Origin: Candidatus Omnitrophota bacterium
GTDB lineage: Bacteria > Omnitrophota > Gorgyraeia > 1-14-0-20-64-10
Reading direction: 5' to 3'
Assembly (NCBI GenBank): GCA_016177405.1
Contig: JACOVG010000032.1
Location: 1-58,626 of the forward strand
Length of the DNA: 58,626 bases
The stretch's first letter is position 1. The number at the start of each line of letters is the position of its first letter. A program made the translations under genes and the position numbers. The notes under the pieces are model-generated. The model was not told where the DNA came from and did not search any database. It worked only from the letters and a program-made list of their open reading frames with translations. Shown piece after piece: positions 31,021-46,016 of this stretch.

Positions 31021-31044
31021 GGCTTTTGACCCCCCTTTTTATCA

Positions 31045-31107
31045 ACCATACCCGCTTTTCATGTGGAATGTCAAGCCTTTGACCCCCCCAAGCTTATGTG
31101 GTAAGCT
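31045..31107. promoter_or_regulatory. back-to-back divergent sigma70-like promoters
   Basis: - strand TTGACA-18-TATGGT (31074-31045); + strand TTGACC-17-TAAGCT (31079-31107). Confidence 0.55.
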
Positions 31108-31131
31108 TGGCCCTAGAACCCCAAACCGCAT

Positions 31132-33501
31132 ATGAAGTTACGAGATGAGCACCCGGTAAGGCTTCTTTTTCTGGCGCTTAGCCTGTCGATCATCTACGTC
31201 GGGATACTGATCCCCGCCGGTTTCCTGGAAAGCGCGCGGCTCAAATCGTACGACGCCTATTGCAAAGGGCGCAATGGGCTCCTCGCCCCTCCGGCCCAGA
31301 CGCAGCAGATCCTCCTCATCACCGTGGATGAGGAATCCCAGCGTAAGCTGGGAAAGAAATGGCCCTGGGACCGCGGCGTTTTCGCCGAATTCCTCACCCA
31401 GTTGTCTCCACACGAACCCCGGATGGTCATTTTCGACTTCGCCTTCTCCGGAACCAGCGCTCTCCTCCACGATCAAGCCCTCGCCAAGGCGATTCAAAAA
31501 GGCCCGCCCACCATTCTCGCGTCCTACCTGGACCGGCATGGCGACCCCGTCTTTCCGCTGCCCCTGCTGACCGAAGCCGGAGCCTTGACCGGCATGATCA
31601 ACAAGCCCCGGGACGCGGATCATACCGTCCGTCGGCTGTGGGCCGCCATGAGGACCCCGATGCGGCAGGAGCCCCTCTACGCGATAGAGATCAAGGCGGC
31701 GGCGTTGATCCAAGGAATTCCGGACGACCAGATTCAACTGAACCGCCAGCTTGCCCTGGGAACCCGCCAGGTTCCCCTGGAGCCGCCTGGAGCCCTTCGC
31801 ATCAACTACCTGACCAGCCCTTCACAGATTGCCACCTTTCCATTCTGGAAGGTGATTCAAAACAAGGTCCCCGCTGAAGCCATCCGGGGGAAGATCATCC
31901 TGGTGGGCTCGGCCAGCGAGATCACCCACGACATCTATCCCACGCCGCTGGGCCTCATGCCGGGGGTGGTCCTCTCCGCCAACGGGATCCTGACCCTCTT
32001 GACCGAGCGCTTCATCCATCCGCTTCCTCTTTGGTCCTCCTTGGCTGCCAGCTTTCTGGGCGTGGCGGTAATCCTCCTGTGGACCTACGGGAGCCGGTTC
32101 TGGCCGGGGCTCCTGGCATCCTTAGCGGGCATGGGGATCGCCTCCGGCCTGGGATTCCTTTTGTTTACCCTCGGCTTTCAGGCCGAGTCCATGAGCATCG
32201 TCTTCCTGGGCCTTGGGGCCTGGATGATCGGGGCGATGTACAAATATCTCCTGCTGGCCAAGGCGGCCTTGGCGCTCCACCGTCAGGCGATCACCGAACC
32301 GGTCAGCGGCGTCTTCACCGGAACCTTCTTTAAACTGCGCCTGGAGGCCTCCTGGACGCAGGCCCAGAAGGGCAGGGGCCATTCGCTTTCCCTCCTCTTG
32401 ATTCAGACAACGCCCTTGGCTTCCAGGGTTCAAGAAAAGTCCTGGGAAGAGGCCAAGGCGCAGACCCGGTCTTTCTCCTCCTGCCTGCAGAGGCTCCGGC
32501 CGCCCAATTCCCTGGTGGGAACTCTTTTGGATGGGACCTTCGGGATGCTGGCGCCTCATCTGTCCTTGCCGAAGGCCCAGGAGCTTGCCCAGCGGCTCAA
32601 GGAAGAACTCCAGGCTCAAGTCCCCGGGAAAGCGGCCATCGGCCTGGCCTGCACAGGGGCCGCCTCTTTCTCCGGCCCGGAGCAGCTGCTGCGAAGCGCC
32701 CAAGCCGCCTTGACCAGGGCCTGGGAGAACCTGGGGTTCAACATCGTCGTTTACGATCCGTCCGTCGACCAGGTCAGGGCCGTCGAGGAAAAAGCGGGTG
32801 CCCAAGCTCAAACCTCCGGCCTCTCCTATGTCGCCTCGGAGATGGAGGAGAGAAACCGGGCCCTGGAAAAGGCCCTCTCCGAGCTTAGGACGGCTCACCA
32901 GGAGCTCGAGTCCACTTTTCTGGATGTCACCAAAACCCTTGTCATGGCCATGGAAACCAAGGATGTTTATACCGCGGGCCACCTGGAGAGGGTCTCCCGC
33001 TACGCCACCCGGCTGGCCCAAGCCCTTCAATTACCCAAGGAGGAGGTGGAGGCGGTCCGGGAGGCGGCCCTGCTGCATGACATCGGCAAGATCGGCCTGC
33101 CCGATGAGGTCCTTCATAAGGTGGGCAAGCTCACCGAGGAGGAGATGGGGGTGATCAAACAGCACCTGGCCATCGGCGCCAAGATCCTGGAGCCGATGAA
33201 ATTCTTCAAATCGATCACCACCCTCATCTACCACCACCACGAATGGTACAACGGCCAGGGCTACCCCCACGGCCTGGCGGGCGACTTCATCCCGGCCGGC
33301 GCCCAGATCATCACCATCGCCGATTCCTTTGACGCCATGACCACCCACCGCGGCTACAACAAGCCCCTGTCCCCTCAAGAAGCCACCGCCGAACTGAAGA
33401 GAGGGGCCCACACCCAGTTCAATCCCGTTTACGTTGAGAAGTTCGCCGAATTGATCGCCCTGGAAGGCCCCCACTTGGCAGGTTACGCTCCTCCCTCCTG
33501 A
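31132..33501 (+). CDS. CHASE2 - 3 TM - degenerate GGDEF - HD-GYP cyclic di-GMP phosphodiesterase
   Basis: CHASE2 motifs (DEES..GKKWPWDR, DADHTVRR, GKIILVG, TPLGLMPGV); HDIGKI, HHEWYNGQGYP. Confidence 0.85.
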   Translation: MKLRDEHPVRLLFLALSLSIIYVGILIPAGFLESARLKSYDAYCKGRNGLLAPPAQTQQILLITVDEESQRKLGKKWPWDRGVFAEFLTQLSPHEPRMVIFDFAFSGTSALLHDQALAKAIQKGPPTILASYLDRHGDPVFPLPLLTEAGALTGMINKPRDADHTVRRLWAAMRTPMRQEPLYAIEIKAAALIQGIPDDQIQLNRQLALGTRQVPLEPPGALRINYLTSPSQIATFPFWKVIQNKVPAEAIRGKIILVGSASEITHDIYPTPLGLMPGVVLSANGILTLLTERFIHPLPLWSSLAASFLGVAVILLWTYGSRFWPGLLASLAGMGIASGLGFLLFTLGFQAESMSIVFLGLGAWMIGAMYKYLLLAKAALALHRQAITEPVSGVFTGTFFKLRLEASWTQAQKGRGHSLSLLLIQTTPLASRVQEKSWEEAKAQTRSFSSCLQRLRPPNSLVGTLLDGTFGMLAPHLSLPKAQELAQRLKEELQAQVPGKAAIGLACTGAASFSGPEQLLRSAQAALTRAWENLGFNIVVYDPSVDQVRAVEEKAGAQAQTSGLSYVASEMEERNRALEKALSELRTAHQELESTFLDVTKTLVMAMETKDVYTAGHLERVSRYATRLAQALQLPKEEVEAVREAALLHDIGKIGLPDEVLHKVGKLTEEEMGVIKQHLAIGAKILEPMKFFKSITTLIYHHHEWYNGQGYPHGLAGDFIPAGAQIITIADSFDAMTTHRGYNKPLSPQEATAELKRGAHTQFNPVYVEKFAELIALEGPHLAGYAPPS

Positions 33502-34649
33502 TGCCGTCAGGGCAGGGGCCGGCAGAACAGCTGACCCTGGAGGTGAAAAGGGAGGCGCTGCGCTTAGGGTTTGCTTCCGTTGGCATAGCCCCTCCCGCCG
33601 CCCTAACCCAAAGAAACGCCGAGCTTGCCCGCTGGATCGTCTCGGGCTTTTCTGGGCGGATGACCTACATGGAGAAGTTCCTGGAGCGCCAGGAGAAGCT
33701 TCTGGCCGGATTCCAGGATTTAAGAAGCCTTGTGGTCTTGGCCGTCTCGTACCAGCCTTCCAACCCCTCGAGGCGCGCGGCTGCCACTGACGAAAACTGC
33801 GCTACCAAACCCTCCGGGCGCGTGGCCCGCTACGCCTGGGGCCGGGATTATCATAAGGCAATCCGTAAACGGCTCAAGCACTTGGAGGCCTTTCTGAAAA
33901 TCCAGCGTCCGGGGGTCCGGACCCTGGCCAGTGTCGACACGGCGCCCCTTCCGGAAAGAGCCCTGGCCCAAGCGGCCGGTTTGGGGTTCTTCGGAAAGAA
34001 TACCTGCCTGATCCGCCCCAAGGGAGGCTCTTACTTCTTTCTATCGGCTCTGCTAACAAATCTGGAGCTTACCCCGGATAAGCCGATCTCCTGGGACTGT
34101 GGCGCCTGCACCCTGTGCCTTCAGGCCTGTCCAACCCAGGCCCTGGCCAAACCCTACGAGCTGGACGCCAGGCGCTGCATCGCTTACCTCACCATCGAGC
34201 TTCGGGGACCGATAGAACCTACCCTAAGGCCGCTGGTGGGCAGATGGCTCTTCGGATGCGACATATGCCAGGAGGTCTGCCCCTACAACGCCCCAAGCCC
34301 ATCCAGGGGCACGCAGAGCCCGGAAACCGGCCCCTGGAGCGAATTCAACCAGGAATCCGGGGCAGGGGCTGCCTTGCCCCTCAACAAGGTCCTGGGCCTA
34401 AGATCGGAAGAGGACTTCCTGAAGCAGTTTGCCGGTACTCCACTTACGAGGCCCAAGCGGGAGGGCCTCTTGCGAAACGCCTGCACCGTGGCAGGGAACC
34501 TTAAAGAGCCATCTTTGGTCAACCCTCTTAAGGCCTGCCTTGAGGAAGATCCTTCTGCCTTGGTGCGAGATCAAGCCGCCTGGGCGCTCAACCAGATTGC
34601 CTCTGCGGTGCACTCGGCTGCCCCACAGCCAGCAAGAATACCGCCCTAG
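33501..34649 (+). CDS. queG: epoxyqueuosine reductase
   Basis: YAWGRDYH, VDTAP..ER, GFFGKN, CGACTLC..CPT, FGCDICQEVCP, C-terminal HEAT repeat. Confidence 0.93.
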   Translation: MPSGQGPAEQLTLEVKREALRLGFASVGIAPPAALTQRNAELARWIVSGFSGRMTYMEKFLERQEKLLAGFQDLRSLVVLAVSYQPSNPSRRAAATDENCATKPSGRVARYAWGRDYHKAIRKRLKHLEAFLKIQRPGVRTLASVDTAPLPERALAQAAGLGFFGKNTCLIRPKGGSYFFLSALLTNLELTPDKPISWDCGACTLCLQACPTQALAKPYELDARRCIAYLTIELRGPIEPTLRPLVGRWLFGCDICQEVCPYNAPSPSRGTQSPETGPWSEFNQESGAGAALPLNKVLGLRSEEDFLKQFAGTPLTRPKREGLLRNACTVAGNLKEPSLVNPLKACLEEDPSALVRDQAAWALNQIASAVHSAAPQPARIPP

Positions 34650-34696
34650 CCCCTTCCTGCCAGTCGCCTAATCCGGGCCGTCGTCCCATACGGGTA

Positions 34697-34724
34697 ATGT
34701 CCGATAATAGATCTTATGTTAATA
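34697..34724 (+). other. dif-like XerCD chromosome dimer resolution site
   Basis: ATGTCCGATAA-TAGATC-TTATGTTAATA: 11-6-11 layout, XerD arm matches TTATGTTAAAT at 9/11; lies at the gene-strand switch. Confidence 0.8.
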
Positions 34725-34922
34725 TTAACGTGCTCAAAAAAGGCTGTTTAACCTTTGGCTTCCCTTAGGGTTCCAAGCTCCTCACAAACCGGCTGTGGAT
34801 AAGACTAAGTTTACCAGCGAGGCTTCCAGACTGTACCAGGGTAAAAGCGGGCGGCGGCCCCACCCCTTAGGCTATCGACTAAGAAAGTGGGCATAAAAAA
34901 TCCCCTCGTTCTTACGCGACAA

Positions 34923-35030
34923 TCAACCCTGCAGAACGATCGCCCGAACGAGGGCGCCCAGCACCAGGCCTATCAGGATCCCCCTGTAAAGAGCCTGGTT
35001 TGGGTTAAAGTCAAACCACGGAGCCATCAT
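34923..35030 (-). CDS. putative 35-aa membrane peptide MMAPWFDFNPNQALYRGILIGLVLGALVRAIVLQG
   Basis: manual translation; promoter TTGACG-18-TAAAAT (35085-35056) upstream; hairpin plus T6 downstream; weak SD. Confidence 0.45.
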   Translation of the reverse strand: MMAPWFDFNPNQALYRGILIGLVLGALVRAIVLQG

Positions 35031-35090
35031 GGGCAGGATGCGTTAACTCACAGCCATTTTAGGGCAGATTCCCCAATCCCGTCAAGGAGA

Positions 35091-35137
35091 TAAAAAGCCC
35101 TCTTTGCGCCTTGGTCGTCCGGCGGCAAAGAGGGCTT
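35091..35137 (-). terminator. intrinsic terminator after the 49-aa ORF
   Basis: AAGCCCTCTTTGC...GCAAAGAGGGCTT inverted repeat ending in a T run on the - strand. Confidence 0.75.
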
Positions 35138-35168
35138 CTCTTGGGAAACCTGGTGAAGCGTCAGCTCG

Positions 35169-35318
35169 TTAGCGGAGGCCGAGGAACTTGAGCCCGAAAA
35201 CAACCGCTAGGATCACGAGCAGCAGCGGAACATACGTCGCAAGATGCGTCGCATAGATCCCGCCGATGACAGCTCCGATAAGGATCCCGGTCAGCAAATC
35301 CACGTGCTCACCTTTCAT
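35169..35318 (-). CDS. 49-aa two-TM membrane protein MKGEHVDLLTGILIGAVIGGIYATHLATYVPLLLVILAVVFGLKFLGLR
   Basis: manual translation; strong SD GAAAGGGGGTGA; promoter TTGTTT-17-TATACT upstream; terminator downstream. Confidence 0.75.
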   Translation of the reverse strand: MKGEHVDLLTGILIGAVIGGIYATHLATYVPLLLVILAVVFGLKFLGLR

Positions 35319-35384
35319 CCTCGTTCACCCCCTTTCCGAGAAGGCGCGTAAGTGGCGACCAACCACAGCCTCCTCTAAACGCCC

Positions 35385-35423
35385 AAAAACCCTCACTCCC
35401 TGAAAATTCCAAGGAATGAGGGT
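35385..35423 (-). terminator. terminator-like hairpin upstream of the 49-aa ORF
   Basis: ACCCTCATTCCTTG-GAATTTT-CAGGGAGTGAGGGT-TTTT on the - strand. Confidence 0.65.
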
Positions 35424-35626
35424 CTCTCAACCTTCCATAGCAAGTATACCTGCCCTACCCAACCAAAACAAGGCCCCCTTCCCTAACCTTCAGCAAAACA
35501 AGGGGTTGCGCATATCATTATTCTTGCCTCCGACCAAGAAGAGACGAATTCAGCCAAATCAAAACTGTAACCTATTGAACTAAAATGAGTTAAGAATATA
35601 CTTGTAACCCTCTATGATAGAATATG

Positions 35627-36301
35627 TTACAGATTTGAAGCGGGCGAGGTTTCCAGGGAGAGCTTCCCAAGATTTTTCAAGGGACACCGGTGGCATTTGG
35701 GATGGGTTCGACAGAGGTTTTTTCCGAGGGCGACGATCAAGGCGTGATACTCGTTAAAGTAAGAGGCCTTGTGAGGAAGGTTCTCCATGAAGAGGGATTG
35801 GATCTCCTCGTACGAAGCCTTCCAGGATACCCAGCCATGCCGGGCCATAAAGCGCCTGGTGTAGGCATCCACCACGAAAATCGGTTTCTCCAAAGCGTAG
35901 AGGAGAATGCTGTCGGCCGTCTCGGGCCCCACCCCGTGGAGCGCCAAAAGCTCCACCCGCAGCCCATTCAGCGGGAGGCCCCGCATCCGACCAAGCGCCC
36001 CGCCATAATGCCGGTTTAGATATCGGATGAAACCCTTTAATTTCTTCGCCTTTTGGTTGAAGTAGCCGGAGGAGCGGATGAGCCCGGCCAGTTTTCTCCG
36101 AGGCAATCTCTCCAACTTGCGTGGGTCAAGAAGATGCCCCGCTTTCAACCGCTCCACAGCCTTGGAGGCATTGGCCCAGGCGGTGTTCTGCGTCAGGATC
36201 GCCCCCACCGCCACCTCAAAAGGGGTTTCTCCGGGCCACCAATGCTGCGCTCCAAAAACGGCGAAGAGCCTCCGGTAGATGGCCCGAAGCGTTCTCTTCA
36301 T
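35627..36301 (-). CDS. HhH-GPD DNA glycosylase, endonuclease III-related
   Basis: WWPGETPFEV..GAILTQNTAW, GVGPETADSILLY, FVVDAY, C-terminal Cys cluster; Glu replaces the lyase Lys. Confidence 0.85.
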   Translation of the reverse strand: MKRTLRAIYRRLFAVFGAQHWWPGETPFEVAVGAILTQNTAWANASKAVERLKAGHLLDPRKLERLPRRKLAGLIRSSGYFNQKAKKLKGFIRYLNRHYGGALGRMRGLPLNGLRVELLALHGVGPETADSILLYALEKPIFVVDAYTRRFMARHGWVSWKASYEEIQSLFMENLPHKASYFNEYHALIVALGKNLCRTHPKCHRCPLKNLGKLSLETSPASNL

Positions 36302-38697
36302 GCCGGACGAAGGGTCATCCTGGTCCAGCTTTGGCCCACCGAGATCCGCACAGAAAGCGGCGGCGTCACAGAAACCGCTTTTTCCATCTCCTCCCGCGCC
36401 AGTCCAGACACCCTCTCCTCCTCCGGCTCTGGAAGTTCCAGGAGAAAGCCATCCGGCAGGAGAAAGATCACCTTCGCTTGAAACCCTTCATCCCTCAAGC
36501 GCCGGCTCACCCTTAAAAGCCCAAGCTTGATGACCTCCGCGCAGGAACCCTCCAGGGCCGTTTCCACCGCCTCCTCTTCAGCGGCCTGACGCAAGACGGG
36601 GTTGGCGCTGTTGATCTGCGGCAGGGCCCTTTCCCTTCCCAGGAAAAAGGTCCTCACCTTCCCTTCCCTCTTGGACTGGATCAGGAGGCTTCTGACAAAC
36701 TGGCCGGGATCCTTCCCGCTGGAAGCCAGCAGGCGGCCCTTCAGATCAAGATATTGGGCCTCCAGAAGAAGGCTCCCGGAGGGGGCCCGCGCCAGCCCCT
36801 TCAAGCCAAGATTCCATGAGCCGTTTTCCTCTTCAGAAAAGAACCGGCTCACCCGGATCCTCCCGGTCCCTGTGGCGGCCTGGTGGACCCCCAGGTAGAA
36901 GCGCCCTGTCTCGGGGTGGGTGTCCCTGGCCAGGACCGCGAGCCGTTCCTTGAGAAATCTTTTCCCCTCCTGGTAGTCCAGCAACTTCCCAACCGCCGGT
37001 TCACTAACGGCCGCCTTGGCCAGGGAGCTTCGGCTAAGGGAGGGCTGCTTGGCCCGGGTTTGATGGGGCAGCCGTATTCCTAAGCGCTGGGTCAAGACGC
37101 GCCGAATCTCTTTGGGAGAATCCAGGTCGAAGCGTTCGCCGACCGACTCAAAGATCTCCTGGGCAAGCCGCCCAAGCCGCTCCTGTGCCTCGCCCTTGAC
37201 CCTCTCGGCCTCCGCCAGGTCCACGGGCAGGCCTTCCGCTTCAACCCCGGAGAGAACCTCAACCAACGGCATCTCCACCTCATGAAAGATCCGCCCAGGC
37301 GCTCCGGCCGAGAGCTCGGGCAAGAAGCGCTCGTAAAGCTGAAAGGTGACATCGGCATCCTCGCAGGCATACTCGGCCACCCGGTCGATCTCGACGTAAG
37401 CCAGGCTTTCCTTATCGCCGGCCAGCTCCTTGAAAGGGATCATCTTGAACCCGAGGTAGGCCAAGGACAGGTCGTCCAGGGAGTGGCTGCGCCGGTCGGG
37501 ATGGATCAGATGGGAAGCCACCATCGTGTCAAACAGGGGCCCGGACACCGGAAGGCCCGCGTTTCCAAGGACCGCCAGGTCGAACTTGATGTTCTGCCCC
37601 GCCTTGACCCTGGAGGCATCGGCCAAAAGGGGCCCCAGCACCGGCCGGATCTCCTCCAGGGTTAGCTGCGCCGGAGCGCCGGCATAGACGTGCCCCACCG
37701 GAAGGTAAAAAGCCTTCCCCGGCCCGACCGCCAAGGAGATTCCCACCAGCCCCGCCCGCTTCACATCCAAACCGGTCGTCTCCGTGTCAATCCCGAAGGC
37801 GGCCGTTGACCTAAGAATTTCCGCGGTTTCTTTAAGATCCTCGGCCGTCAAAATCGTCCGGTAGGAAGTCTTATAAAGGTGGGCATGAACCAGGAGATCG
37901 GACAGGAGATCCGAGAACCCCGCCTCGGTGAACTGCCGGGTGACCTGTTCGGGCTCGGCCTCCGAGAGAACCAGCCGGTCCAGCAGATCCCGGCCGATAA
38001 GGGATGACTCGCAAACAATCGCCCGGCCCCTTCCCTGCCGGATCCGCTCTCTGGCTTCCCCCAACGCCTTTGCCAAGGCGGGGGGAAGCTCTTCCAGAGC
38101 CCCGAGGATTTTCTCGAGGCCCCCATATTGGGCCAAGAGCTTGGCGGCCCGCTTGGGACCGACTCCCTTGACGCCCGGAATCCCCTCCGCGTCATCCCCG
38201 ACCAAGGCAATCCTGTCGGGAATCTTTTCAGGCGGCACACCAAAGACCTTCAGGACCTGGTCCGGATCAAAACGGAGCTTTTCCCTGGCCGGATTAAGCA
38301 AGGTCACGTGAGGCCCGACCCATTGGAGGAAAACAGAGCGGGTGGTGACCAGCAAGGCGGGCATCCCCTTGCGCTTCGCCTGCTCCAGCAAGGGGAGGGC
38401 CAGGCCGGCCGCCGCGCAATCCCTGAACTCCAGGACTGGAATTCCCCCAACCGCAAGGAGCCTTCGGATCAGGGGAAGCTCTTTGGCAAGGTCGGCAGGC
38501 ATCTGGGTGGACCCCGCCTTGAGCTTGCCGTCGAAAAGAACGCCGACCCGCTCCGGCTTTTCCGTCTTGATCAGCTTTAGAACAAGGGCGATGAGGCGAT
38601 GGGCCGCCGACCGAAACCGTCCCTTCGCCCCCAACCGGGGCGAAACCGCGTAGTGGCACCAATTGGCGCAGGAAGGGGCGTCAACCAGGAGCAGCAT
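36298..38697 (-). CDS. DNA polymerase I homologue with a degenerate polymerase domain and intact 3'-5' exonuclease motifs
   Basis: H3TH GIPGVKGVGPKRA; ExoI DTET, ExoII NIKFD, ExoIII YACED present; motif A DYSQIELR altered to QYLDLKGR, fingers/motif B absent, motif C HDE altered to PDG. Confidence 0.8.
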   Translation of the reverse strand: MLLLVDAPSCANWCHYAVSPRLGAKGRFRSAAHRLIALVLKLIKTEKPERVGVLFDGKLKAGSTQMPADLAKELPLIRRLLAVGGIPVLEFRDCAAAGLALPLLEQAKRKGMPALLVTTRSVFLQWVGPHVTLLNPAREKLRFDPDQVLKVFGVPPEKIPDRIALVGDDAEGIPGVKGVGPKRAAKLLAQYGGLEKILGALEELPPALAKALGEARERIRQGRGRAIVCESSLIGRDLLDRLVLSEAEPEQVTRQFTEAGFSDLLSDLLVHAHLYKTSYRTILTAEDLKETAEILRSTAAFGIDTETTGLDVKRAGLVGISLAVGPGKAFYLPVGHVYAGAPAQLTLEEIRPVLGPLLADASRVKAGQNIKFDLAVLGNAGLPVSGPLFDTMVASHLIHPDRRSHSLDDLSLAYLGFKMIPFKELAGDKESLAYVEIDRVAEYACEDADVTFQLYERFLPELSAGAPGRIFHEVEMPLVEVLSGVEAEGLPVDLAEAERVKGEAQERLGRLAQEIFESVGERFDLDSPKEIRRVLTQRLGIRLPHQTRAKQPSLSRSSLAKAAVSEPAVGKLLDYQEGKRFLKERLAVLARDTHPETGRFYLGVHQAATGTGRIRVSRFFSEEENGSWNLGLKGLARAPSGSLLLEAQYLDLKGRLLASSGKDPGQFVRSLLIQSKREGKVRTFFLGRERALPQINSANPVLRQAAEEEAVETALEGSCAEVIKLGLLRVSRRLRDEGFQAKVIFLLPDGFLLELPEPEEERVSGLAREEMEKAVSVTPPLSVRISVGQSWTRMTLRPA

Positions 38698-40423
38698 TTC
38701 GCCTTCGCTTCCCGGCAATCCAGGCCATGAGGGGGCCCGGCTCCAGGGTATTCAAGAGAACCCTCTTGGACACCCAGGCCCGGCGGGCGATCGAAAGACC
38801 GGTCTCGATCCCTTGAAGCTGATCCAGGGAATGGGTATCTGTGGACAAAACGAGCATCGCCCCGGCCTCCTGGGCTCTCCGGGCCTCCAGGTCGTTCAAG
38901 TCCATCCGCTGGCTCGCGCAATTGATCTCAAGCGCCGTGGGCCCCTGGCAGGCGGCGCGAATCACCTCCTCGAAATCCCACTCCACAGGATCCCGCACGC
39001 CGCGCAAGCGGGTGGTGGGATGCGCCAGGATGCTCACGTAGGGACTGCGCAGGGCCCGGATCACCCGCCGGGTCATCACCGCCTTGGACTGGCGGAAGGA
39101 CGAGTGGACCGCGGCAATCACGCAATCGAGCTTCTGGAGCACCTCATCCGGGTAGTCCAGACGGCCGTCCGGGAGGATATCCACCTCCGCCCCCATCAAG
39201 ATTCGGAAAGGGGCCAGGCGCTTGTTCAGCCTCCTGACCTCTTCCCGTTCCTTAAACAGCTCCGGCACCGACAACCCCCCGGCTATCCGGAGAGACCTCG
39301 AGTGATCCGAAAGGACCATGTATTGGTGGCCGCGGGCCCGGGCGGCCCGGGCGACCTCTTCGATCGGGTGGTGGCCGTCGGACCAATCGGAATGGATGTG
39401 GAAATCCCCTTTCAGATCCTTCCTCTCAACAAGTTTTGGCAGTTTGCCGTTTCTGGCGGCGTCCGTCTCGCCGGCGTCTTCCCGAAGCTCCGGCGGTATC
39501 CACGCCAGCCCCAGCGCCCGGTAAACATCCTCCTCCTCGCGGCCTGCGACCTTGCGCCCGCCCTTAATCTTGAAAACCCCATATTCGTTGACCGTCAGTC
39601 CCATCCGGTTGGCCAGGCCTCGGATGGCGATGTTGTGCTCCTTGGATCCGGTGAAGTAGACCAGGGCCGCCCCATAGGAATCCGGTTCCACCACCCGAAG
39701 GTCCACCTGAACCCCTTGGGCCGTCCGGATGCTCGATTTGGTCAGACCGCGGGCTTGGATTTGCGCGGCCAGGGGCAGCTTCACAAACCACTCCATCACC
39801 CGGGCCGGATGAGTGGAGGCGATCAGAAGGTCCAGATCGCGGATCGTCTCCTTTCGACGCCTCAGGGAACCGGCCACGCAGATCCGCTCGATCTCCCGGC
39901 AGCCCTTCAGGCGCTTAAGGACCTCCTCCGAGAGGGCCAGGGCCTCGGCCAGGGGCATTTGCCCCTGACCCGTTTTGAGCAGCCTGATCCCCCGAAGAAT
40001 GTTCTCCTCCTTCTTCTCCCGAAAGCCAGGCAGGGTGCGCAGCTTACCTGCCTTTACGAGGTTCGCGAGCTGCGCGACCGATTTCACCCTGAACCGGTCG
40101 TAGAGCAGTTTGGCCGTCTTGGGACCTACGCCGGCAATCGAGAGGAGATCCGCCAAGCCGGGAGGGATCTTCCGGGTGAGCTCATCGAGATACTGGAGGC
40201 GTCCGGTTTCTATGATTTCCTGGGCCTTGAGGGCCAGATCCTCGCCAATCCCCGGAATCTCGCGCAGGGCGCCCCGCTGGGCGACCGCCTCAATGGGCTC
40301 GGTGAGCGAGCGTAAGTTCAGGGCCGCCCGGCGGTAGGCCCGGATGCGGAAGGGATTTGCCCCTTTGAGCTCCAGCAGGTCGGCGATCCGCTCAAAGGTG
40401 TCGGCGATGGGCAGTTGCTTCAA
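38681..40423 (-). CDS. polX: DNA polymerase X / PHP 3'-5' exonuclease
   Basis: NPFRIRAY, HhH motifs, GSLRR..DLD, VDLR, YFTGSKEHN, PHP HIHSDWSDG/SDHS/DTH; start TTG 40423 (ORF track 40447). Confidence 0.93.
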   Translation of the reverse strand: MKQLPIADTFERIADLLELKGANPFRIRAYRRAALNLRSLTEPIEAVAQRGALREIPGIGEDLALKAQEIIETGRLQYLDELTRKIPPGLADLLSIAGVGPKTAKLLYDRFRVKSVAQLANLVKAGKLRTLPGFREKKEENILRGIRLLKTGQGQMPLAEALALSEEVLKRLKGCREIERICVAGSLRRRKETIRDLDLLIASTHPARVMEWFVKLPLAAQIQARGLTKSSIRTAQGVQVDLRVVEPDSYGAALVYFTGSKEHNIAIRGLANRMGLTVNEYGVFKIKGGRKVAGREEEDVYRALGLAWIPPELREDAGETDAARNGKLPKLVERKDLKGDFHIHSDWSDGHHPIEEVARAARARGHQYMVLSDHSRSLRIAGGLSVPELFKEREEVRRLNKRLAPFRILMGAEVDILPDGRLDYPDEVLQKLDCVIAAVHSSFRQSKAVMTRRVIRALRSPYVSILAHPTTRLRGVRDPVEWDFEEVIRAACQGPTALEINCASQRMDLNDLEARRAQEAGAMLVLSTDTHSLDQLQGIETGLSIARRAWVSKRVLLNTLEPGPLMAWIAGKRRRNAAPG

Positions 40424-41198
40424 CCTTGTCTCCGACGCGAAGCCCAAACCGTTTGGCCGCGGAGCCGCGGTTTATGGCAATCTCCAGAAATCCTCTGCTG
40501 CCGATCACTGCCAGGGCCGCGCCCCTGGGAACCGCGCCGTAAGAAGGCTGAAGGCCGTGCGCCCGCGCCCCCTTGGCCCGGATCTTGAGGCTCCCCTTCC
40601 CTTCCAGCCGCCGGATCAAAGAAACCGGAAGGTTGGTGACGGCGCTTCCAAAACGGTCCAGATAGATCACCTCACCCTTCAAGCGCCTTAAACCCTCCCA
40701 CCGGGGTTGGGGACTGTCCAGCCGGACAATGCGCCTCACGCGGGGCCCCAACCGGCTGGGGGCAAGCCCTTTGGAAAGGTGGGCCGCCGCCGGAGCGAAG
40801 ATGTCCCTCCCCTGAAAGGTTCGGCCGATCGGTTTTAAGGCGTAGCGGCGATTGGAGACCTCGAAGATCTTGGGGTCACGGACGTCCGACAAGATGCCGC
40901 TTAAAAGTCCGTTGTCCGGCGCCAGAAAAAGGTGGCCGCCGTGGGCCGCGCACAAGATCTTCCTTCGGGAACCCACCCCCGGATCCACTACCGCCGCATG
41001 AATGGTCCCCTTGGGAAAGTACCGCCAGCTCCACCGGAGGAGCCAGGCGGCCCGCCGCACATCACCGGGGGAAACCTCGTGGCTAAGATCAATCACCCGG
41101 GCCTTGGGATTCAAGCCGAGAATGACCCCCTTCATCACGCCCACATACTCATCCTTCAGCCCGAAATCGGTCAGCAGGGTGATCGGGCGGAATTTCAC
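40392..41198 (-). CDS. SAM hydroxide adenosyltransferase / chlorinase-fluorinase family (DUF62)
   Basis: LLTDFG..YVGVMKG, VVDPGVG, APDNG, TFQGRDIFAP, DRFG. Confidence 0.88.
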   Translation of the reverse strand: MKFRPITLLTDFGLKDEYVGVMKGVILGLNPKARVIDLSHEVSPGDVRRAAWLLRWSWRYFPKGTIHAAVVDPGVGSRRKILCAAHGGHLFLAPDNGLLSGILSDVRDPKIFEVSNRRYALKPIGRTFQGRDIFAPAAAHLSKGLAPSRLGPRVRRIVRLDSPQPRWEGLRRLKGEVIYLDRFGSAVTNLPVSLIRRLEGKGSLKIRAKGARAHGLQPSYGAVPRGAALAVIGSRGFLEIAINRGSAAKRFGLRVGDKVEATAHRRHL

Positions 41199-41201
41199 AG
41201 C

Positions 41202-42314
41202 CTAGAGGGTTCGGCTTAGGGGGGTGTAGGTGAGATTCAGGGCCTGGGCCAGGGACCGGTAGGTGACCTTGCCGTGGATCACGTTGACCCCTCGCGCCAG
41301 CAAGGGATTCTCCTTCAGGGCGCGGGGGATCCCGTGGTTGGCCATCTCCAGGACAAAGGGCAGGGTGGCATTGGTCAAGCCGTAGGTGGAGGTGATTGGA
41401 ACCGCCCCGGGGATATTGGTCACGCAGTAATGAACGATGCCTTCCTCCACATAGACCGGCTTGGCGTGGGTGGTGGGCCGGGAGGTCTCGGCGCATCCGC
41501 CCTGGTCAATGGCCACGTCCACGATCACGGAGCCGGGCTTCATCTTCTTCAGCATCCAGCGGGGGATGAGGATGGGGGAACGCGCGCCGCGAATCAAGGC
41601 GCAGCAAAAAACCAGGTCCGCCTGGATGATCCTCTCGGCGATGTTGTGCTCGTGCGACATCAGAAACGACACGTTCTTGGGCATGATGTCTTCCAGGTAG
41701 CGCAGGCGGTCCAGATCAACGTCCATCACGGTCACCTCGCCGCCAAAACCGGCCGCCACCTTGGCCGCGTTGGCGCCGACCACCCCGCCGCCCAAGATCA
41801 GGATGTTGGCGGGCGCCACGCCGGGAATCCCGCCCAGCAGGATTCCCTTGCCCTTCGTGGGCTTTTCCAGGTACTTGGCTCCTTCCTGCACCGCCATCCT
41901 GCCGGCCACCTCGCTCATGGGAATCAGGATCGGAAGTCTCCCCTGGGCATCCTCGACCGTCTCATAGGCGACACAGGTCACCTTGCGCTTCATCATGGCC
42001 TGGGCAAGACCGGTGTTGGCCGCGAAATGAAAAAAGGTGAAGACGATCTGCCTGGACTTCAGCAGGGGATACTCCCGGGGCAACGGCTCCTTGACCTTGA
42101 GGACCAGGCGGGCTTCCTTAAAGACTTGCTGAGGCGAGCGGACGATCTTGGCGCCGGCTTGTGCGTAGGCCCGGTCTGAAATGTTGGATCCTTCCCCCGC
42201 TCCGCTTTCGACCAACACGGTGTGCCCCGCCCGGGTGAGGCTGGCCACCCCCGCCGGTACCGCCGCTACCCGGTACTCATCCTCCTTGATCTCCTTCGGA
42301 ACCCCGACAATCAC
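41202..42314 (-). CDS. ald: alanine dehydrogenase
   Basis: VGVPKEIKEDEYRV, KVKEP, PMSEVAGR, GGGVVG, DVAIDQGGC; start GTG 42314 overlaps the upstream stop. Confidence 0.94.
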   Translation of the reverse strand: MIVGVPKEIKEDEYRVAAVPAGVASLTRAGHTVLVESGAGEGSNISDRAYAQAGAKIVRSPQQVFKEARLVLKVKEPLPREYPLLKSRQIVFTFFHFAANTGLAQAMMKRKVTCVAYETVEDAQGRLPILIPMSEVAGRMAVQEGAKYLEKPTKGKGILLGGIPGVAPANILILGGGVVGANAAKVAAGFGGEVTVMDVDLDRLRYLEDIMPKNVSFLMSHEHNIAERIIQADLVFCCALIRGARSPILIPRWMLKKMKPGSVIVDVAIDQGGCAETSRPTTHAKPVYVEEGIVHYCVTNIPGAVPITSTYGLTNATLPFVLEMANHGIPRALKENPLLARGVNVIHGKVTYRSLAQALNLTYTPLSRTL

Positions 42315-42667
42315 GAGGAGAGCATCCTTTCCAGGACAAACTGGGCGATGCGGCGACGGTCGGTGGGCTTGATCCGGGAGAAAAAGACAGCCGTCAAATA
42401 AGAGCGGCAAGAGGCCGCCCGAGCAGAACGGTCTTTCCTCACGACGACCCCCGCGCACCGGATGGCCACGGGGGATCGGCCATTCCCAGCCCGCGGCAGG
42501 ACAAAGGAGACGTTGAGCCGGGTCAGCAAGGGCAGTGACTTGCTTATCCTGAACAGGGCTCCTCCACAGCTTAAGTTCCGGGTTTCCGCGGTGAGGACCC
42601 CTCTGCCTGCTTTGACCTGGCAGAGGAGAGCTTCGGCAACGCGGGGGTATTTACGCCGCTCCATCAT
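42311..42667 (-). CDS. PilZ domain protein
   Basis: ERRKYPR, NLSCGG. Confidence 0.82.
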   Translation of the reverse strand: MMERRKYPRVAEALLCQVKAGRGVLTAETRNLSCGGALFRISKSLPLLTRLNVSFVLPRAGNGRSPVAIRCAGVVVRKDRSARAASCRSYLTAVFFSRIKPTDRRRIAQFVLERMLSS

Positions 42668-43464
42668 GAAAGGTGCCGGTCGAAGAAGCTTAACACGCGC
42701 TTCGCGTACCTCTCTCGCTCCAGGTAGAAAGCCCCAACATGCTCCGCTTCCGGGACCAACCAAAATTCCTTGGCCTGGCCGGCCAGCTTAAAAAGCTTGG
42801 CGGCCTGGCCAGGGGCTATGGAGATGTCGCGCCCCCCGTGAATGATGAGAATGGGCCTTGGGGCGATGGCGCCGATCGCGCCGGCGGGGCTCAACTCCTT
42901 GAGACGGCAACCCAGCCGCAGCTCGACCCCCCAGAGAACCATCTGCCCCAGAGGCCACCGAAGGATATGATACGTCAACCGCTGGGCCCTCGCAATGGCG
43001 TGGCTTAAGTCGGCGTAAGCCGAGTCGGTGACCACCGCCTTCACCTGGGGACAGCGGGCCGCCGCCAGGATGGCGATCGCCCCGCCCATGGAGATTCCGT
43101 AGAAACCCACCGGCAGATCCGCCAGGTCAGGTCTCCCGGCAAGGAAAACCAGCAGCGTTTTAAGATCGTCCACCTCCTTCTTTCCGAAGGAAATGGTTTC
43201 TCCCCCCGAGGCCCCGTGGGCCCTAAAATCCATCAGAACCAGATGATAAGACCCCCGGGCATGGAAAACGCAAGCGGTATCCAGCAAGTCCGCCTTGGAG
43301 GTGCCGAATCCGTGTAAAAGAATCAGGATCCCCTTGGGCGCCGGATGAGGAATAAGCCATCCCACCAGGGGAATACCATCCGGGGCGTTCACCTGAAGGG
43401 GTTGCCAGGACAGGCCTATCTCATCGGGGGTGGCGGGAGGATTAAAACGCTCCTGGTGAACCAC
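42664..43464 (-). CDS. alpha/beta hydrolase (true start probably further upstream)
   Basis: LHGFG, DFRAHGASGG, GISMG nucleophile, IHGGRD, AEH. Confidence 0.85.
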   Translation of the reverse strand: MVHQERFNPPATPDEIGLSWQPLQVNAPDGIPLVGWLIPHPAPKGILILLHGFGTSKADLLDTACVFHARGSYHLVLMDFRAHGASGGETISFGKKEVDDLKTLLVFLAGRPDLADLPVGFYGISMGGAIAILAAARCPQVKAVVTDSAYADLSHAIARAQRLTYHILRWPLGQMVLWGVELRLGCRLKELSPAGAIGAIAPRPILIIHGGRDISIAPGQAAKLFKLAGQAKEFWLVPEAEHVGAFYLERERYAKRVLSFFDRHLS

Positions 43465-43529
43465 CCGGGATGAGCCCAGAAGGCACCAGCCCGCCAGGAG
43501 AAGAAAAACAAAAAGAAGGATGGCTGCCC

Positions 43530-43892
43530 TTAGGCGCTCTTGGGCTTGCCCCCGAGCCAGTGCGCGTAGACGAAATCAAGAAGGCGCGCCAAATCGAGCG
43601 GCTTGATGGAAAGAAATTTGAGGCCGGCGCCGGTTTTTTCCCGCTGCGCGTCGGATTCAGACCAGGTCACCTCGGCCGTGGCGAAGATCGGGATGTTGTC
43701 CCCTGGCACCTTCATCGTCAGCTCCACATGCTCGCCCCGCCTCACCGGATGGACCAGCGACATTCCAACCCCCTGCCGGCAAAAATCCCTCACCTCACCC
43801 TGGCCCGCCGCCATGGAGGGACCCTTGGCCCAGTATTCCGCCATGAGCTCCGTGGCGAACCGCTTGAATTTACGCCTCTCCCTGATCGTCAT
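43530..43892 (-). CDS. PilZ domain protein
   Basis: ERRKFKR, DFCRQG, GLKF. Confidence 0.8.
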   Translation of the reverse strand: MTIRERRKFKRFATELMAEYWAKGPSMAAGQGEVRDFCRQGVGMSLVHPVRRGEHVELTMKVPGDNIPIFATAEVTWSESDAQREKTGAGLKFLSIKPLDLARLLDFVYAHWLGGKPKSA

Positions 43893-43910
43893 CTACGCGG
43901 TCCTCCTTCC

Positions 43911-46016
43911 CTAATGGCCCACCGCTTCGCGGCCCAGCAACTCGGAAACATCCACCGGGCGATTCGAGATTAACCCCTTCTGGTATGCCCTGAAGAAAGC
44001 CGCCACCACGGATGGGTCAAATTGGGTGCCGGAGCAGGCGGAGATCTCCCTAAGAGCCGCCTCATCGGACAGGCGTCTTCGGTAGGGGCGATCGGTGGTC
44101 ATGGCATCGAACGTGTCGGTCACGGCGATGATCCTGGCCATGACGGGAACCTCGCTTCCCCGCAAACGGTCGGGATAGCCCTTGCCGTCAAAACGCTCCT
44201 GGTGGGCCTTCACCGCCTTGGCCACCTCCTCCATCCCCTTGATGGGCTGCAGGATGATCGCCCCGATGATCGGGTGCTCCTGCATCTTGCGCGTTTCGGT
44301 GGGGGTAAGCTTCCCCTTCTTCCGGAGGATCTCATCCGAAACCCCGATCTTGCCGATGTCGTGTAGAAGCGCGGCGATATTGAGCATCTCCTTGAAGCGG
44401 GGGATGGCCGCGATTTCGGGATTCGGCCCCATCTCATCGGCCACCGCCATGGCATACGAGGTGCACCGCTCGGTGTGGCCATGGGTGTAAGGATCTCGGG
44501 CATCCACCGCGGCCGCCAGGGCGATGGCCGTGTGGATGAAGAGGCGGTGCTCCCTCTGGTAAAGATCCTCAATCTGGTGCATCCGGTGGAAGAGCTGCTC
44601 GTAGAGCTGGGCGTTCTCCAGGGCAATCGCCCCCTCGTTGGCCAGCGTGGAAAGGAGATCCACATCCTCCTGGGTGTAGACTTTCCCGGAAAGCTTCTCC
44701 CCCAGCACCAGGAACCCCATCATCCGATCCTTGCTGAAGGCCGGCACGCACAGCTCCGCCTTCAGCCGGACCATCTCGGCCTGAATCTGGGCCAGCGTCC
44801 GGCGCAGAACCAGCCGGTTGTCCGGGAAGAGGGTGTCGCTCTTCAGCCAGTGCTCCACCTCATCGGCCGACAGAGGCTCCTTCTTCTCCTCAAGCCAGGC
44901 CACCAGGGGATTGTCCCGGTCCATCTGAAGGGGGAAGGGAAGCTTGGCTCTTCCCCGCGTGACCTTGAGGGTGTAGTGGTCGCCGGCGCGGTGCAGGATC
45001 GCCACATGGGTCACCCGGACGCGCATCCCGATGAAGTGGGCCATCAACTGAAGGAGGCGCTCGACCGACGTCACCTTGCTCATCCCCTTGGAGGCCTCTT
45101 TGAGGGTCTTCTGCCACTCGTATTTCCTCTGGAAAAGGAGCCGGTCGGTCAGGCGGGTGAGCCACGTGTCCAGGGGCCTGACCAGCCCCGTCACAATGCT
45201 CAACGCCACGACGCACATCCAAAGGACCCGCTTGTCCAGCGACTGCGGCCCGTAAAAAAGGAGCTGGCCCAAGAAGACCACCACCACCACGAACAGCCCC
45301 ACCAGGATCGAGTAGAGACTGGTGTAGATCAGGGTGTTCTTCACCACAATCGAAACATCCATCAGCCGCCAGCGCACGATGGCGTAGCCGATCAAGGCGT
45401 AAAAAACCAGAAGCCCCTGCCCCACCGGCGCCATCGGAATGCCGACCGCCAGGGGCATCATGGACAGGAAGGAGGCCAGCCCGATGAGCGAAGCCAAAAC
45501 CACGTAGAGAAGCTGGTTGCGCTTGTACCCCACCTGCGTCCGGTACTCCTTCAACAGCAGACCGATCGCGTAGAGGAAAAGCCCGGCAAACCAGAGGGCG
45601 AAGAAGCCGTAGAAAGGCCCGGCCACCCCATAGAAGCGAAAGGGCGGCTCGGTTTGAAGATCCCGGATCATCAAGGGGGTCAGCGACAGCAAGACCATGA
45701 GGCCCGCCGCTCTCTCGTTCCAAGCCAAAACCCCAGGCCGCTTGCCGTGGCCGTTGAGCAAGGCCAGGGTGAACCGAAGGAAAAGAACAGGGATAAGCCC
45801 AAAGATCGCCTGGGCGGTCCTGGCCCACACAAACCCCCAGCCCATCGAGGGCGAAAGAATCATAAAGCCGGTGGCCAAGGCCCACAGGGAGGTCGCCAGC
45901 GACAGGTGCAGCCACGTCTGGTTCATCAGGCCGGCTCGGTTCTTCGCGTAGACGAAGAAACCGACCCCCAGGCTCGTCAGCGCCACCGCGAACAACCCCC
46001 AGTTGCCGAAGGTCAT
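43911..46016 (-). CDS. 7TM (HisKA_7TM-like) - GAF - HD-GYP phosphodiesterase
   Basis: multi-TM N-terminus, GAF (GEKLSG..YT.ED..LL..ALEN), HDIGKI, HQERFDGKGYP. Confidence 0.85.
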   Translation of the reverse strand: MTFGNWGLFAVALTSLGVGFFVYAKNRAGLMNQTWLHLSLATSLWALATGFMILSPSMGWGFVWARTAQAIFGLIPVLFLRFTLALLNGHGKRPGVLAWNERAAGLMVLLSLTPLMIRDLQTEPPFRFYGVAGPFYGFFALWFAGLFLYAIGLLLKEYRTQVGYKRNQLLYVVLASLIGLASFLSMMPLAVGIPMAPVGQGLLVFYALIGYAIVRWRLMDVSIVVKNTLIYTSLYSILVGLFVVVVVFLGQLLFYGPQSLDKRVLWMCVVALSIVTGLVRPLDTWLTRLTDRLLFQRKYEWQKTLKEASKGMSKVTSVERLLQLMAHFIGMRVRVTHVAILHRAGDHYTLKVTRGRAKLPFPLQMDRDNPLVAWLEEKKEPLSADEVEHWLKSDTLFPDNRLVLRRTLAQIQAEMVRLKAELCVPAFSKDRMMGFLVLGEKLSGKVYTQEDVDLLSTLANEGAIALENAQLYEQLFHRMHQIEDLYQREHRLFIHTAIALAAAVDARDPYTHGHTERCTSYAMAVADEMGPNPEIAAIPRFKEMLNIAALLHDIGKIGVSDEILRKKGKLTPTETRKMQEHPIIGAIILQPIKGMEEVAKAVKAHQERFDGKGYPDRLRGSEVPVMARIIAVTDTFDAMTTDRPYRRRLSDEAALREISACSGTQFDPSVVAAFFRAYQKGLISNRPVDVSELLGREAVGH

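Follow-up and report, generated by a model that had tools for sequence, protein, structure and literature searches.

The window analysed here, a stretch of 58,626 nucleotides from a Candidatus Omnitrophota bacterium (contig JACOVG010000032.1), encodes a paralog of DNA polymerase I (Pol I) in which the polymerase site is lost and the 3'-5' exonuclease site is kept. The gene lies between those of a PolX DNA polymerase and an HhH-GPD DNA glycosylase. We read the paralog as a polymerase-dead, DNA-end-binding 3'-5' exonuclease that was added to a PolX/glycosylase base-excision module, and we give this reading a probability of roughly 0.5. The protein would be a family A pseudo-polymerase that retains the fold of Pol I, except for the mobile fingers, and a complete DEDDy site.

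As listed in Table 1, the three genes are co-oriented and overlap one another, which agrees with an earlier note on this DNA. The paralog is represented in the window by gene call P0004, whose 799 amino acids match the ATG start. No promoter-like site was found between the three genes, and an Rfam search of positions 30000-45000 returned no match. The locus was likewise absent from the RNA runs that were searched. A link of the locus to defence systems was considered and rejected, as the PADLOC matches were weak and generic only (DEDD, HhH). The order PolX-paralog-glycosylase was found in 4/4 carrier genomes and on metagenome contig L057, and the paralog-glycosylase pair on two further contigs. 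Where the flanks could be read, the paralog was directly upstream of the glycosylase (7/7 loci) and downstream of PolX (5/5 loci).

Table 1. Coordinates of the three genes, the domains of the Pol I paralog and the gene overlaps within the window.
Feature	Position	Strand	Remarks
PolX gene	38681..40447	-	588 codons from TTG 40447; alternative TTG start 40423
Pol I paralog	36298..38718	-	806 codons from TTG 38718; ATG 38697 is the likely start, 799 aa
Paralog residues 1-230, 5'-nuclease-like domain and H3TH	38029..38718	-	PF02739 49.7 bits, PF01367 63.6 bits
Paralog residues 285-470, DEDDy 3'-5' exonuclease domain	37309..37866	-	PF01612, Klenow alignment
Paralog residues 471-806, thumb and palm remnant	36301..37308	-	Fingers loss in frame at about 36699/36700
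HhH-GPD DNA glycosylase	35627..36301	-	224 aa; PF00730 66.7 bits
Overlap of PolX stop (38681-38683) and paralog ATG (38697), 17 nt	38681..38697	-	Read from sequence
ATGA overlap of paralog stop and glycosylase start, 4 nt	36298..36301	-	Read from sequence

The paralog keeps the domain order of Pol I (PolA1), that is 5' nuclease, 3'-5' exonuclease and polymerase, and the Pfam families 5_3_exonuc_N (PF02739), 5_3_exonuc (PF01367), DNA_pol_A_exo1 (PF01612) and DNA_pol_A (PF00476) follow one another along the protein, all above their cut-offs. The exonuclease family scored 95.1 bits (cut-off 23.6). In an alignment with Klenow 1d9d (chain index + 323 gives the Pol I number), D355, E357, D424, Y497 and D501 correspond to identical residues of the paralog, D311, E313, D380, Y450 and D454. 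All five DEDDy residues and the three motifs that hold them (Exo I Asp-Glu, Exo II Asp and Exo III Tyr-x3-Asp) are kept in 10/10 members of the paralog family; the earlier note had reported intact exonuclease motifs in the window protein. This domain is also the best-conserved part of the paralog, with a mean pairwise identity of 62% compared with 39-55% elsewhere (8 family members).

The polymerase domain presents the opposite picture. Pol I polymerases have three polymerase motifs: A (D705, E710), B (R754, K758, F762, Y766), which forms the dNTP-binding O-helix, and C (H881, D882, E883). The DNA_pol_A match of the paralog is split, covering profile positions 4-123 and 253-380 and leaving 124-252 unmatched. 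In the Klenow alignment, motif A reads Q655 and K660 in place of D705 and E710, and motif C reads P755-D756-G757 in place of H881-D882-E883. Pol I residues 724-800 (Klenow chain 401-477), about 77 residues of the fingers including motif B, have no counterpart. The thumb and palm framework remains, just as had been described from the letters of the sequence. In 10/10 members motif A has no Asp, motif B is absent altogether, E883 is replaced by Gly and the remaining losses from motifs A and C recur; the primer-end residues R841, N845 and Q849 are replaced in most members, mainly by acidic residues. It has to be considered that the paralog might still be a polymerase or transferase that uses the motif C carboxylate with new ligands, as the D882 position holds Asp in seven members and Glu in three, and the R668 position Arg or Lys in 7/10. 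Given the losses shared by every member, however, we regard such an activity as barely credible.

Loss of the 5'-nuclease carboxylates, also claimed previously, was borne out. The window protein has AAAG in place of EADD and (T)RSV in place of (G)DKD, with five carboxylates replaced; the first Asp of the 5' nuclease and the GDxxE-IPGV H3TH motif are retained. The EADD and DKD motifs are lost in 10/10 paralogs but kept in 29/29 canonical Pol I proteins of the class (one with EAED). As both the fingers and the catalytic residues are gone, the paralog is predicted neither to polymerise nor to cut 5' flaps, and we think it probable that it is exonuclease-active and polymerase-dead.

The overall fold appears to have survived these losses. 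An AlphaFold2 model of the paralog had a pLDDT of 91.3 (80.4 from the 10 family sequences alone), and matched Klenow 1kfs_A with Z 34.9 and an rmsd of 3.0 over 510/601 residues at 31% identity; the fold of full-length Pol1 (6vde) was matched as well. The paralog thus resembles Pol I (PolA1; E. coli Pol I/Klenow and M. smegmatis Pol1) in domain order, exonuclease residues and fold, but differs from it in the motif A Asp, motif B, the motif C His and Glu and the five 5'-nuclease carboxylates, and in coexisting with a canonical Pol I in one genome. It scored below the cut-offs for Pol I proper, at 437 bits against 720 for PRK05755 (NF004397) and 315 against 600 for TIGR00593. Databases are likely to label such a protein 'DNA polymerase I', and annotations should be read with this in mind. 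Another polymerase-dead PolA, P0137, had one near-identical sequence in the protein collection and no close relative among the genome contigs; with that single sequence only, it is treated as a singleton.

The carriers of the paralog are a few uncultured groundwater bacteria. Trees built from PolX, the glycosylase or Pol I do not unite them in one clade, which is a point against our preferred reading. The ten ORFs recovered are intact, free of stops and 697-829 aa long, with 43-61% identity to the window protein (43-100% over the ten full-length relatives). Contigs of a 95-100% identical strain from a second study differ by substitutions only, with zero indels in the covered parts, and the reading frame of the paralog is therefore not an assembly accident. 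The NG86 dN/dS ratio was about 0.24 overall and 0.17-0.38 per domain for G000 versus G001, the closest pair and the only one for which the ratio is usable, since synonymous sites are saturated beyond it; no closer DNA pair was found in the metagenome scan (3 loci) or the first genome scan (none). The paralog is thus under purifying selection and not in decay. The earlier note had argued against simple decay and had pointed to conservation and per-domain dN/dS as informative; the shared states in 10/10 members, these ratios and the strong conservation of the exonuclease domain all agree with it. No relative has an intact polA at this locus: relatives have the same pseudo-polymerase or nothing there.

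Some observations nevertheless fit a redundant gene copy that has no function of its own and is heading for loss. The paralog is absent from most of the family, the length of its fingers remnant differs among members, and it evolves faster than its neighbours, which also counts against our preferred reading (identities are 44-61% for the paralog, 67-78% for PolX and 66-72% for the glycosylase). Ten sister genomes have PolX and the glycosylase without it. In the spacers between PolX and glycosylase of genomes lacking the paralog (320-390 nt), a profile search found no paralog relics, and these spacers contain a Thiamine_BP-like small ORF. With intact frames, identical catalytic states in all members and a dN/dS of about 0.24 in unsaturated domain comparisons also opposed to it, gene loss is a very improbable account.

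A different possibility is that the protein is a non-catalytic DNA-end binder or scaffold, whose fold recognises nicks or gaps or recruits PolX and the glycosylase, the exonuclease site being incidental. Duplex DNA in Pol I is held by the thumb and the H3TH motif. In the paralog, the dead 5'-nuclease-like and H3TH domains have mean pairwise identities of 51% and 55% (8 family members) and dN/dS ratios of 0.22 and 0.17, and together with the thumb they are under purifying selection and carry family-specific conserved motifs, which speaks for a role in binding. Inactive polymerases can act as organisers, ImuB being one example in the available text of PMC9226535 and PMC12926913. Retention of all five exonuclease residues in every member, in the most conserved domain of the protein, is however hard to explain without catalysis, and we consider a purely structural role quite unlikely.

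A canonical polA, which the earlier note had suggested seeking, is present elsewhere in the same genome. Its polymerase and 5' nuclease are intact and its exonuclease (DEDDy) motifs are gone, making this Pol I, as judged by motifs, the mirror image of the paralog in retained activities. Canonical Pol I lacks DEDDy in 18/18 family genomes examined, and in the family's Pol I the exonuclease domain is the least conserved part (40% compared with 64-68% elsewhere). The proposal of a split repair machine therefore stands only in part: the exonuclease is lost from canonical Pol I and kept in the paralog, but Pol I without exonuclease occurs family-wide, including the 14 paralog-free genomes among the 18. 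A split by duplication of Pol I is similarly qualified. In the best trees (LG+G4) the paralog falls outside the canonical Pol I clade of the class and groups with five atypical metagenomic PolAs, and hence does not come out as a recent copy of the polA of its own lineage; yet a topology holding the paralogs and the class Pol I together was not rejected by the AU test (p-AU 0.095).

These results also bear on whether the paralog works with PolX at all. An active exonuclease might have a job untied to PolX: it might edit on its own for the Pol I that lacks an exonuclease, or trim 3' ends, overhangs or flaps in general, with its operon position a historical accident. The family-wide loss of DEDDy from Pol I and the reciprocal conservation of the two exonuclease domains favour this alternative, and proofreading in trans has a precedent in PolC acting for DnaE in B. 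subtilis (available text of PMC12926913). Furthermore, the PHP domain of PolX itself carries a 3'-5' exonuclease according to the available text of PMC2566882, so that an extra editor for PolX looks partly redundant. The constant adjacency to the glycosylase and to PolX at readable loci and the overlapping frames in the window weigh against independence from PolX, as do the 14 genomes with an exonuclease-less Pol I and no paralog. We judge a PolX-independent job to be unlikely. The same 14 genomes, with the ten that have PolX and glycosylase only, indicate that the paralog is dispensable for the module.

Both neighbours of the paralog were assigned by their motifs. PolX scored 524 bits against NF006375 (cut-off 426). 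It aligned over its full length with the T. thermophilus enzyme (3au2, E 4.7e-155), and DLD, the third catalytic Asp and the His/Asp ligands of the PHP domain are kept, as noted earlier. Residues D204, D206, D249, H350, H352, H382, E421, H448, H476, D537 and H539 are invariant in 13/13 family PolX proteins. By these features PolX is canonical, with an X-family core and a C-terminal PHP domain. Of about 590 alignment columns in PolX, only 3 distinguish genomes with the paralog from those without it (398, 412 and 500, all in PHP), a weak signal. A search of the genome, which is 93.4% complete, found no AP endonuclease of the Nfo or Xth type, so that this role may fall mainly to the PHP domain of PolX.

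The glycosylase matched HhH-GPD (PF00730) well above the cut-off of 26.2 bits. GVGPETAD and VVDAY are conserved in 12/13 orthologs, G018 reading FVGDAY. In Endonuclease III, which is bifunctional, the HhH motif contains the Schiff-base Lys, and four Cys bind the [4Fe-4S] cluster. In the present glycosylase the catalytic Asp is kept, the Schiff-base Lys position is Glu in 13/13, and the C-terminal motif has three Cys with Gly at the fourth position (Ser in one of the 13 orthologs). These differences and a TIGR01083 score of 69 bits against 211.7 place it outside Endonuclease III. Among solved structures the closest is that of MagIII, a 3-methyladenine DNA glycosylase, from H. pylori (1pu6, E 2.1e-19), and the score for MagIII (NF010494) was below the cut-off (97.9 bits against 192). 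We predict a monofunctional-type HhH-GPD glycosylase.

Under our preferred reading, the paralog would be co-translated with PolX and the glycosylase from one operon. By homology, the glycosylase would remove the base, the PHP domain of PolX would act as AP endonuclease and clean the 3' end, and the gap would be filled by the PolX core. Base excision or gap repair is therefore the pathway to which we assign the paralog. The paralog would bind a primer-template, nick or gap in the manner of Pol I. The 3' end could then go only to the exonuclease site, the polymerase cleft having no catalytic carboxylates and mostly no primer-end residues. The protein would thus be a dedicated 3'-end editing or trimming nuclease, removing 3' ends that PolX, and possibly also the exonuclease-less Pol I, had left mispaired or damaged. 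Gene order and overlapping frames suggest the link to PolX and base excision repair, and on this basis we hold the chances that the paralog works in the PolX/glycosylase pathway to be about even. A stable complex with PolX is doubtful. Similarly tentative is the wider picture of a cross-family pair, in which a family A DNA-end clamp with a DEDDy exonuclease edits PolX in trans, and perhaps also the exonuclease-less Pol I, within a self-contained glycosylase/PolX operon, with the three activities of Pol I distributed over two paralogs.

Polymerase families B, X and Y are known to include paralogs that have been inactivated, among them ImuB and noncanonical PolX. We compared the present protein with such systems as far as the available text of each source describes them. 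Noncanonical prokaryotic PolX likewise has a dead synthesis site and an attached 3'-5' exonuclease that is kept, but it belongs to family X, has a PHP nuclease and has NHEJ LigD partners (PMC9226535), whereas here PolX is canonical and the dead polymerase belongs to family A. ImuB of the ImuA-ImuB-DnaE2 mutasome (Y-family) is also an inactivated polymerase paralog in an operon with an active polymerase; unlike the present paralog, which retains a nuclease site, it is devoid of a nuclease and works as a clamp adaptor and organiser (PMC12926913, PMC9226535). PolA2/APEX and exonuclease-inactive PolA1 are family A proteins with one activity switched off, but there the polymerase is kept and the exonuclease lost (PMC12926913, PMC10201439), which is the type of the canonical Pol I in the window genome. 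In the family A paralog POLIB of Trypanosoma brucei, exonuclease activity outweighs synthesis; that protein is eukaryotic and mitochondrial, its polymerase domain is present, and the shift towards exonuclease activity is due to an insertion, not to missing motifs A, B and C (PMC9731263).

In the available text of two recent surveys of bacterial family A, every group has a polymerase and only the exonuclease is reported lost (PMC12926913, PMC10201439). No description of a bacterial polymerase-dead family A paralog was found in the literature searched. The paralog reverses the pattern of these surveys, with the polymerase lost and the exonuclease kept, and it is maintained by selection in what appears to be a repair operon. 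If the exonuclease is active, the protein would be a natural experiment on the Pol I scaffold without synthesis, and would show how 3' ends are brought to the editing site by a thumb and a 5'-nuclease-like domain. As a candidate editor of PolX in trans, it would moreover offer a model of how bacteria control fidelity during base excision repair, and one open to direct testing.

Three ORFs, all on the minus strand, occupy positions 35627-40447 of the window and encode PolX, a Pol I homologue (hereafter the paralog) and an HhH-GPD glycosylase. PolX, at its stop codon, and the paralog, at its ATG, overlap by 17 nt, and the paralog stop and glycosylase start share an ATGA. No promoter-like sites were found between the operon genes, and terminator-like matches there did not exceed the chance level. 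In the strain of a second study, a T>C change (plus strand) at window position 38697 turns the paralog ATG into GTG and alters one C-terminal codon of PolX. The ~1 kb downstream of the glycosylase contains no ORF of at least 80 aa and no Rfam match; G+C content is 0.557 in 34001-36000 versus about 0.61-0.64 in the surroundings. About 6 kb away from the operon, the opposite strand carries a UvrD/Rep-type helicase gene, and genes for SAM hydroxide adenosyltransferase and alanine dehydrogenase lie upstream of PolX in the same orientation.

Coordinates of the features discussed (window positions unless a contig or locus is named)
Feature	Location	Strand	Remarks
PolX	38681-40447	-	NF006375, 524 bits (cut-off 426)
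Pol I homologue (paralog)	36298-38718	-	Likely start ATG 38697 (matches 799-aa gene call P0004)
HhH-GPD glycosylase	35627-36301	-	Most downstream of the three ORFs
Region downstream of glycosylase	34650-35626
UvrD/Rep-type helicase gene	27928-29946	+
Canonical Pol I, 868 aa	Contig C3, L001:1489-4092	-	PF00476
Additional DEDDy domain	Contig C2:36687-37184	+	PF01612, 126.6 bits; within a 386-aa open frame
Thiamine_BP gene, ~100 aa	Metagenome contig L057:817-1116	+	PF01910, 92.5 bits; between PolX and paralog

All four Pol I domains were found in the paralog by Pfam, with the polymerase match split between profile positions 4-123 and 253-380 of 381, and the protein scored below both NCBIfam Pol I cut-offs (437 vs 720 and 315 vs 600). 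Residue states were assessed by HMMER alignment to the Klenow fragment 1d9d, with Pol I numbering obtained by adding 323 to the chain index. The DEDDy exonuclease residues D355, E357, D424, Y497 and D501 are retained as D311, E313, D380, Y450 and D454. In motif A, D705 is replaced by Gln and E710 by Lys; Pol I residues 724-800, including motif B and the O-helix, have no counterpart; and H881-D882-E883 of motif C reads Pro-Asp-Gly. The positions of R841, N845 and Q849, which we take to be minor-groove and primer-end contacts, are all Glu in the window paralog; among the ten family members, three have Arg and four Lys at the R841 position, and seven have Glu at the Q849 position. The 5'-nuclease domain lacks the E-A-D-D and D-K-D motifs; it retains its first Asp and, in the H3TH motif, GDxxE-IPGV. 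The gene layout and residue states recorded in the earlier note, PolX ligands included, were borne out throughout.

An AlphaFold2 model of the paralog built with 75 sequences reached a pLDDT of 91.3 and a pTM of 0.86; with the ten family sequences alone, pLDDT was 80.4 and the secondary-structure layout was unchanged. The top Foldseek matches were full-length Pol I structures (6vde, Taq) and Klenow. VIA-align superimposed the model on Klenow 1kfs_A with a Z of 34.9 and an rmsd of 3.0 Å, aligning 510 of 601 residues over model positions 279-802, and the unaligned part of this model comparison matches the missing fingers. The modelling shows a sequence compatible with the Pol I fold, activity lying beyond a homologue-based model.

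The same losses could reflect a decaying polA, a reading that the earlier note had rejected. A word-indexed search of 5.8 billion clusters returned ten paralog-family proteins, the window's own included (697-829 aa, E <= 8e-178, 43-100% identity), and the eleventh match fell to 2.8e-120 and 33% identity. A ten-member profile searched against 1.84 billion representatives gave three matches above 1200 bits, with the next at 669. The exonuclease motifs are intact in all ten members, and the motif A Asp, motif B, the motif C His and Glu and both 5'-nuclease motifs are lost in all ten. Nei-Gojobori dN/dS for the closest pair with DNA (G000 and G001) was 0.24 overall and 0.17-0.38 per domain, highest in the motif A remnant; these values are rough, as dS is 1.28, near saturation, and the remaining pairs are saturated. 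Pairwise identity between eight of the members averages 62% over the exonuclease domain, against 39-55% for other parts of the protein, whereas in the canonical Pol I of the same family (n=18) the pattern is reversed (40% and 64-68%). Selection still acts on the dead 5'-nuclease-like domain, which carries family-specific motifs, and the second-study contigs, from a strain 95-100% identical, differ by substitutions only. The shared states, the low dN/dS and the best-conserved exonuclease domain thus uphold the rejection of simple decay. Judged from these sequence comparisons, the paralog is a genuine pseudo-polymerase that is maintained by selection and whose exonuclease site is intact.

The genome also has a canonical polA, a point the earlier note had left for checking: a second PF00476 match (540 bits) on contig C3 has motifs A, B and C and the 5'-nuclease carboxylates intact and lacks the DEDDy motifs. 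As the same combination of intact and missing motifs was found in 18/18 family genomes examined (G010 and G016, with fragments only, were excluded; relatives' loci are L019-L038), an exonuclease-less Pol I is a family trait; it also occurs in G021, G023 and G028. The DEDDy motifs are retained by the canonical Pol I in eight further class genomes and by seven outside references. Loss of the exonuclease as a response to the paralog was ruled out, since the loss is family-wide. The additional DEDDy domain on contig C2 possibly belongs to an RNase D-type protein.

The paralog was present in 4/41 genomes of one set and in 4/401 genomes of the class; the carriers (G000, G001, G002 and G008) span three genera of one family, in which 15/20 genomes have PolX. 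The order PolX-paralog-glycosylase holds in all four. In ten non-carrier genomes the glycosylase follows PolX directly or past a ~100-aa Thiamine_BP-like ORF, and in one, G003, the contig ends. No paralog relics were detectable at loci without it. On metagenome contig L057 the order is PolX, Thiamine_BP, paralog, glycosylase, and in L058 and L059 the glycosylase comes next after the paralog C-terminus. A Thiamine_BP gene also precedes the glycosylase in G004, G017, G018 and G006 (spacers in L041, L046, L049 and L050).

In PolX, glycosylase and Pol I trees, carriers are intermixed with non-carriers, requiring three changes with weak support, and a single origin would still be compatible with these trees. 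Three of ~590 PolX columns (398, 412 and 500), each within the PHP domain, separate carriers from non-carriers and offer only a lead. The paralogs form one clade (100*) with a long stem, outside the canonical Pol I clade of the class; this clade shares its side of a 99* branch with five atypical metagenomic PolAs, the best non-family matches of the profile search. A quick LG+G4 search and long branches reduce trust in the placement of the paralogs, and an origin within the class remained acceptable in an AU test (p 0.095). Among the five, P0125, P0092 and P0126 combine intact polymerase motifs with degenerate 5'-nuclease motifs, P0153 shows partial loss downstream of motif B and reads DDE in motif C, and motifs A, B and C are all gone from P0137. 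P0137 is a singleton with one near-identical (99%) copy and no family, and its genome context was not found. The paralog family itself is small, comprising three clusters at 50% identity, from uncultured groundwater bacteria.

In its section 15, PMC12926913 divides bacterial family A into PolA1, PolA2, PolA3 and PolA1-like, with the exonuclease lost in roughly half of PolA1 and also in PolA2; that section reports no polymerase loss. The inactive domains mentioned in passages of PMC10201439 are exonuclease or UDG domains. Our full-text literature search turned up no paper describing a family A paralog in bacteria whose polymerase is dead. The nearest analogy is the noncanonical PolX described in PMC9226535, family X proteins that work as exonucleases and have no polymerase activity. 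ImuB, of the Y family, is inactive and has an organiser role. The protein described here is likewise an inactivated polymerase paralog, in this case of family A and with the exonuclease retained.

Given that the exonuclease site is intact, that the thumb and H3TH motif are retained and that the cleft has no catalytic or primer-end contacts, we infer that the paralog would bind a primer-template, nick or gap in the manner of Pol I and could deliver the 3' end to the exonuclease site alone, making it an obligate editor or trimmer. In its operon context it would clear mispaired or damaged 3' ends while PolX fills the gap; the exonuclease-less Pol I might be a second client, and the dead 5'-nuclease-like domain may grip the downstream duplex or a partner. 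Because PolX has its own PHP exonuclease and many sister genomes lack the paralog, its function would be accessory. The repair machine proposed earlier stands in part: the selected pseudo-polymerase with its exonuclease site holds, and the evidence for the possible link to PolX is gene order.

The upstream ORF is a canonical bacterial PolX. It can be aligned from end to end with T. thermophilus PolX 3au2, and its three polymerase Asp and PHP His/Asp/Glu ligands are invariant in 13/13 family sequences. The closest relatives of the glycosylase are H. pylori MagIII (1pu6, E 2e-19) and D. radiodurans EndoIII-1. It has Glu at the position of the endonuclease III Schiff-base Lys, retains the catalytic Asp and has only three Cys versus four in endonuclease III; from this combination the enzyme is predicted to be monofunctional, leaving an AP site. 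Its orthologs share C-x5/6-C-x2-C followed by a conserved CP(L/I/A)Rxx(G/S)xLxLE, without the fourth Cys expected of an endonuclease III-type [4Fe-4S] cluster. Neither Nfo (TIGR00587) nor Xth (TIGR00633) AP endonucleases were matched in the 93.4%-complete genome, and the PHP domain of PolX may be its main AP endonuclease. Therefore, PolX and the glycosylase look like a compact base-excision module, to which the paralog has been added, or in which it was retained, in a few lineages.
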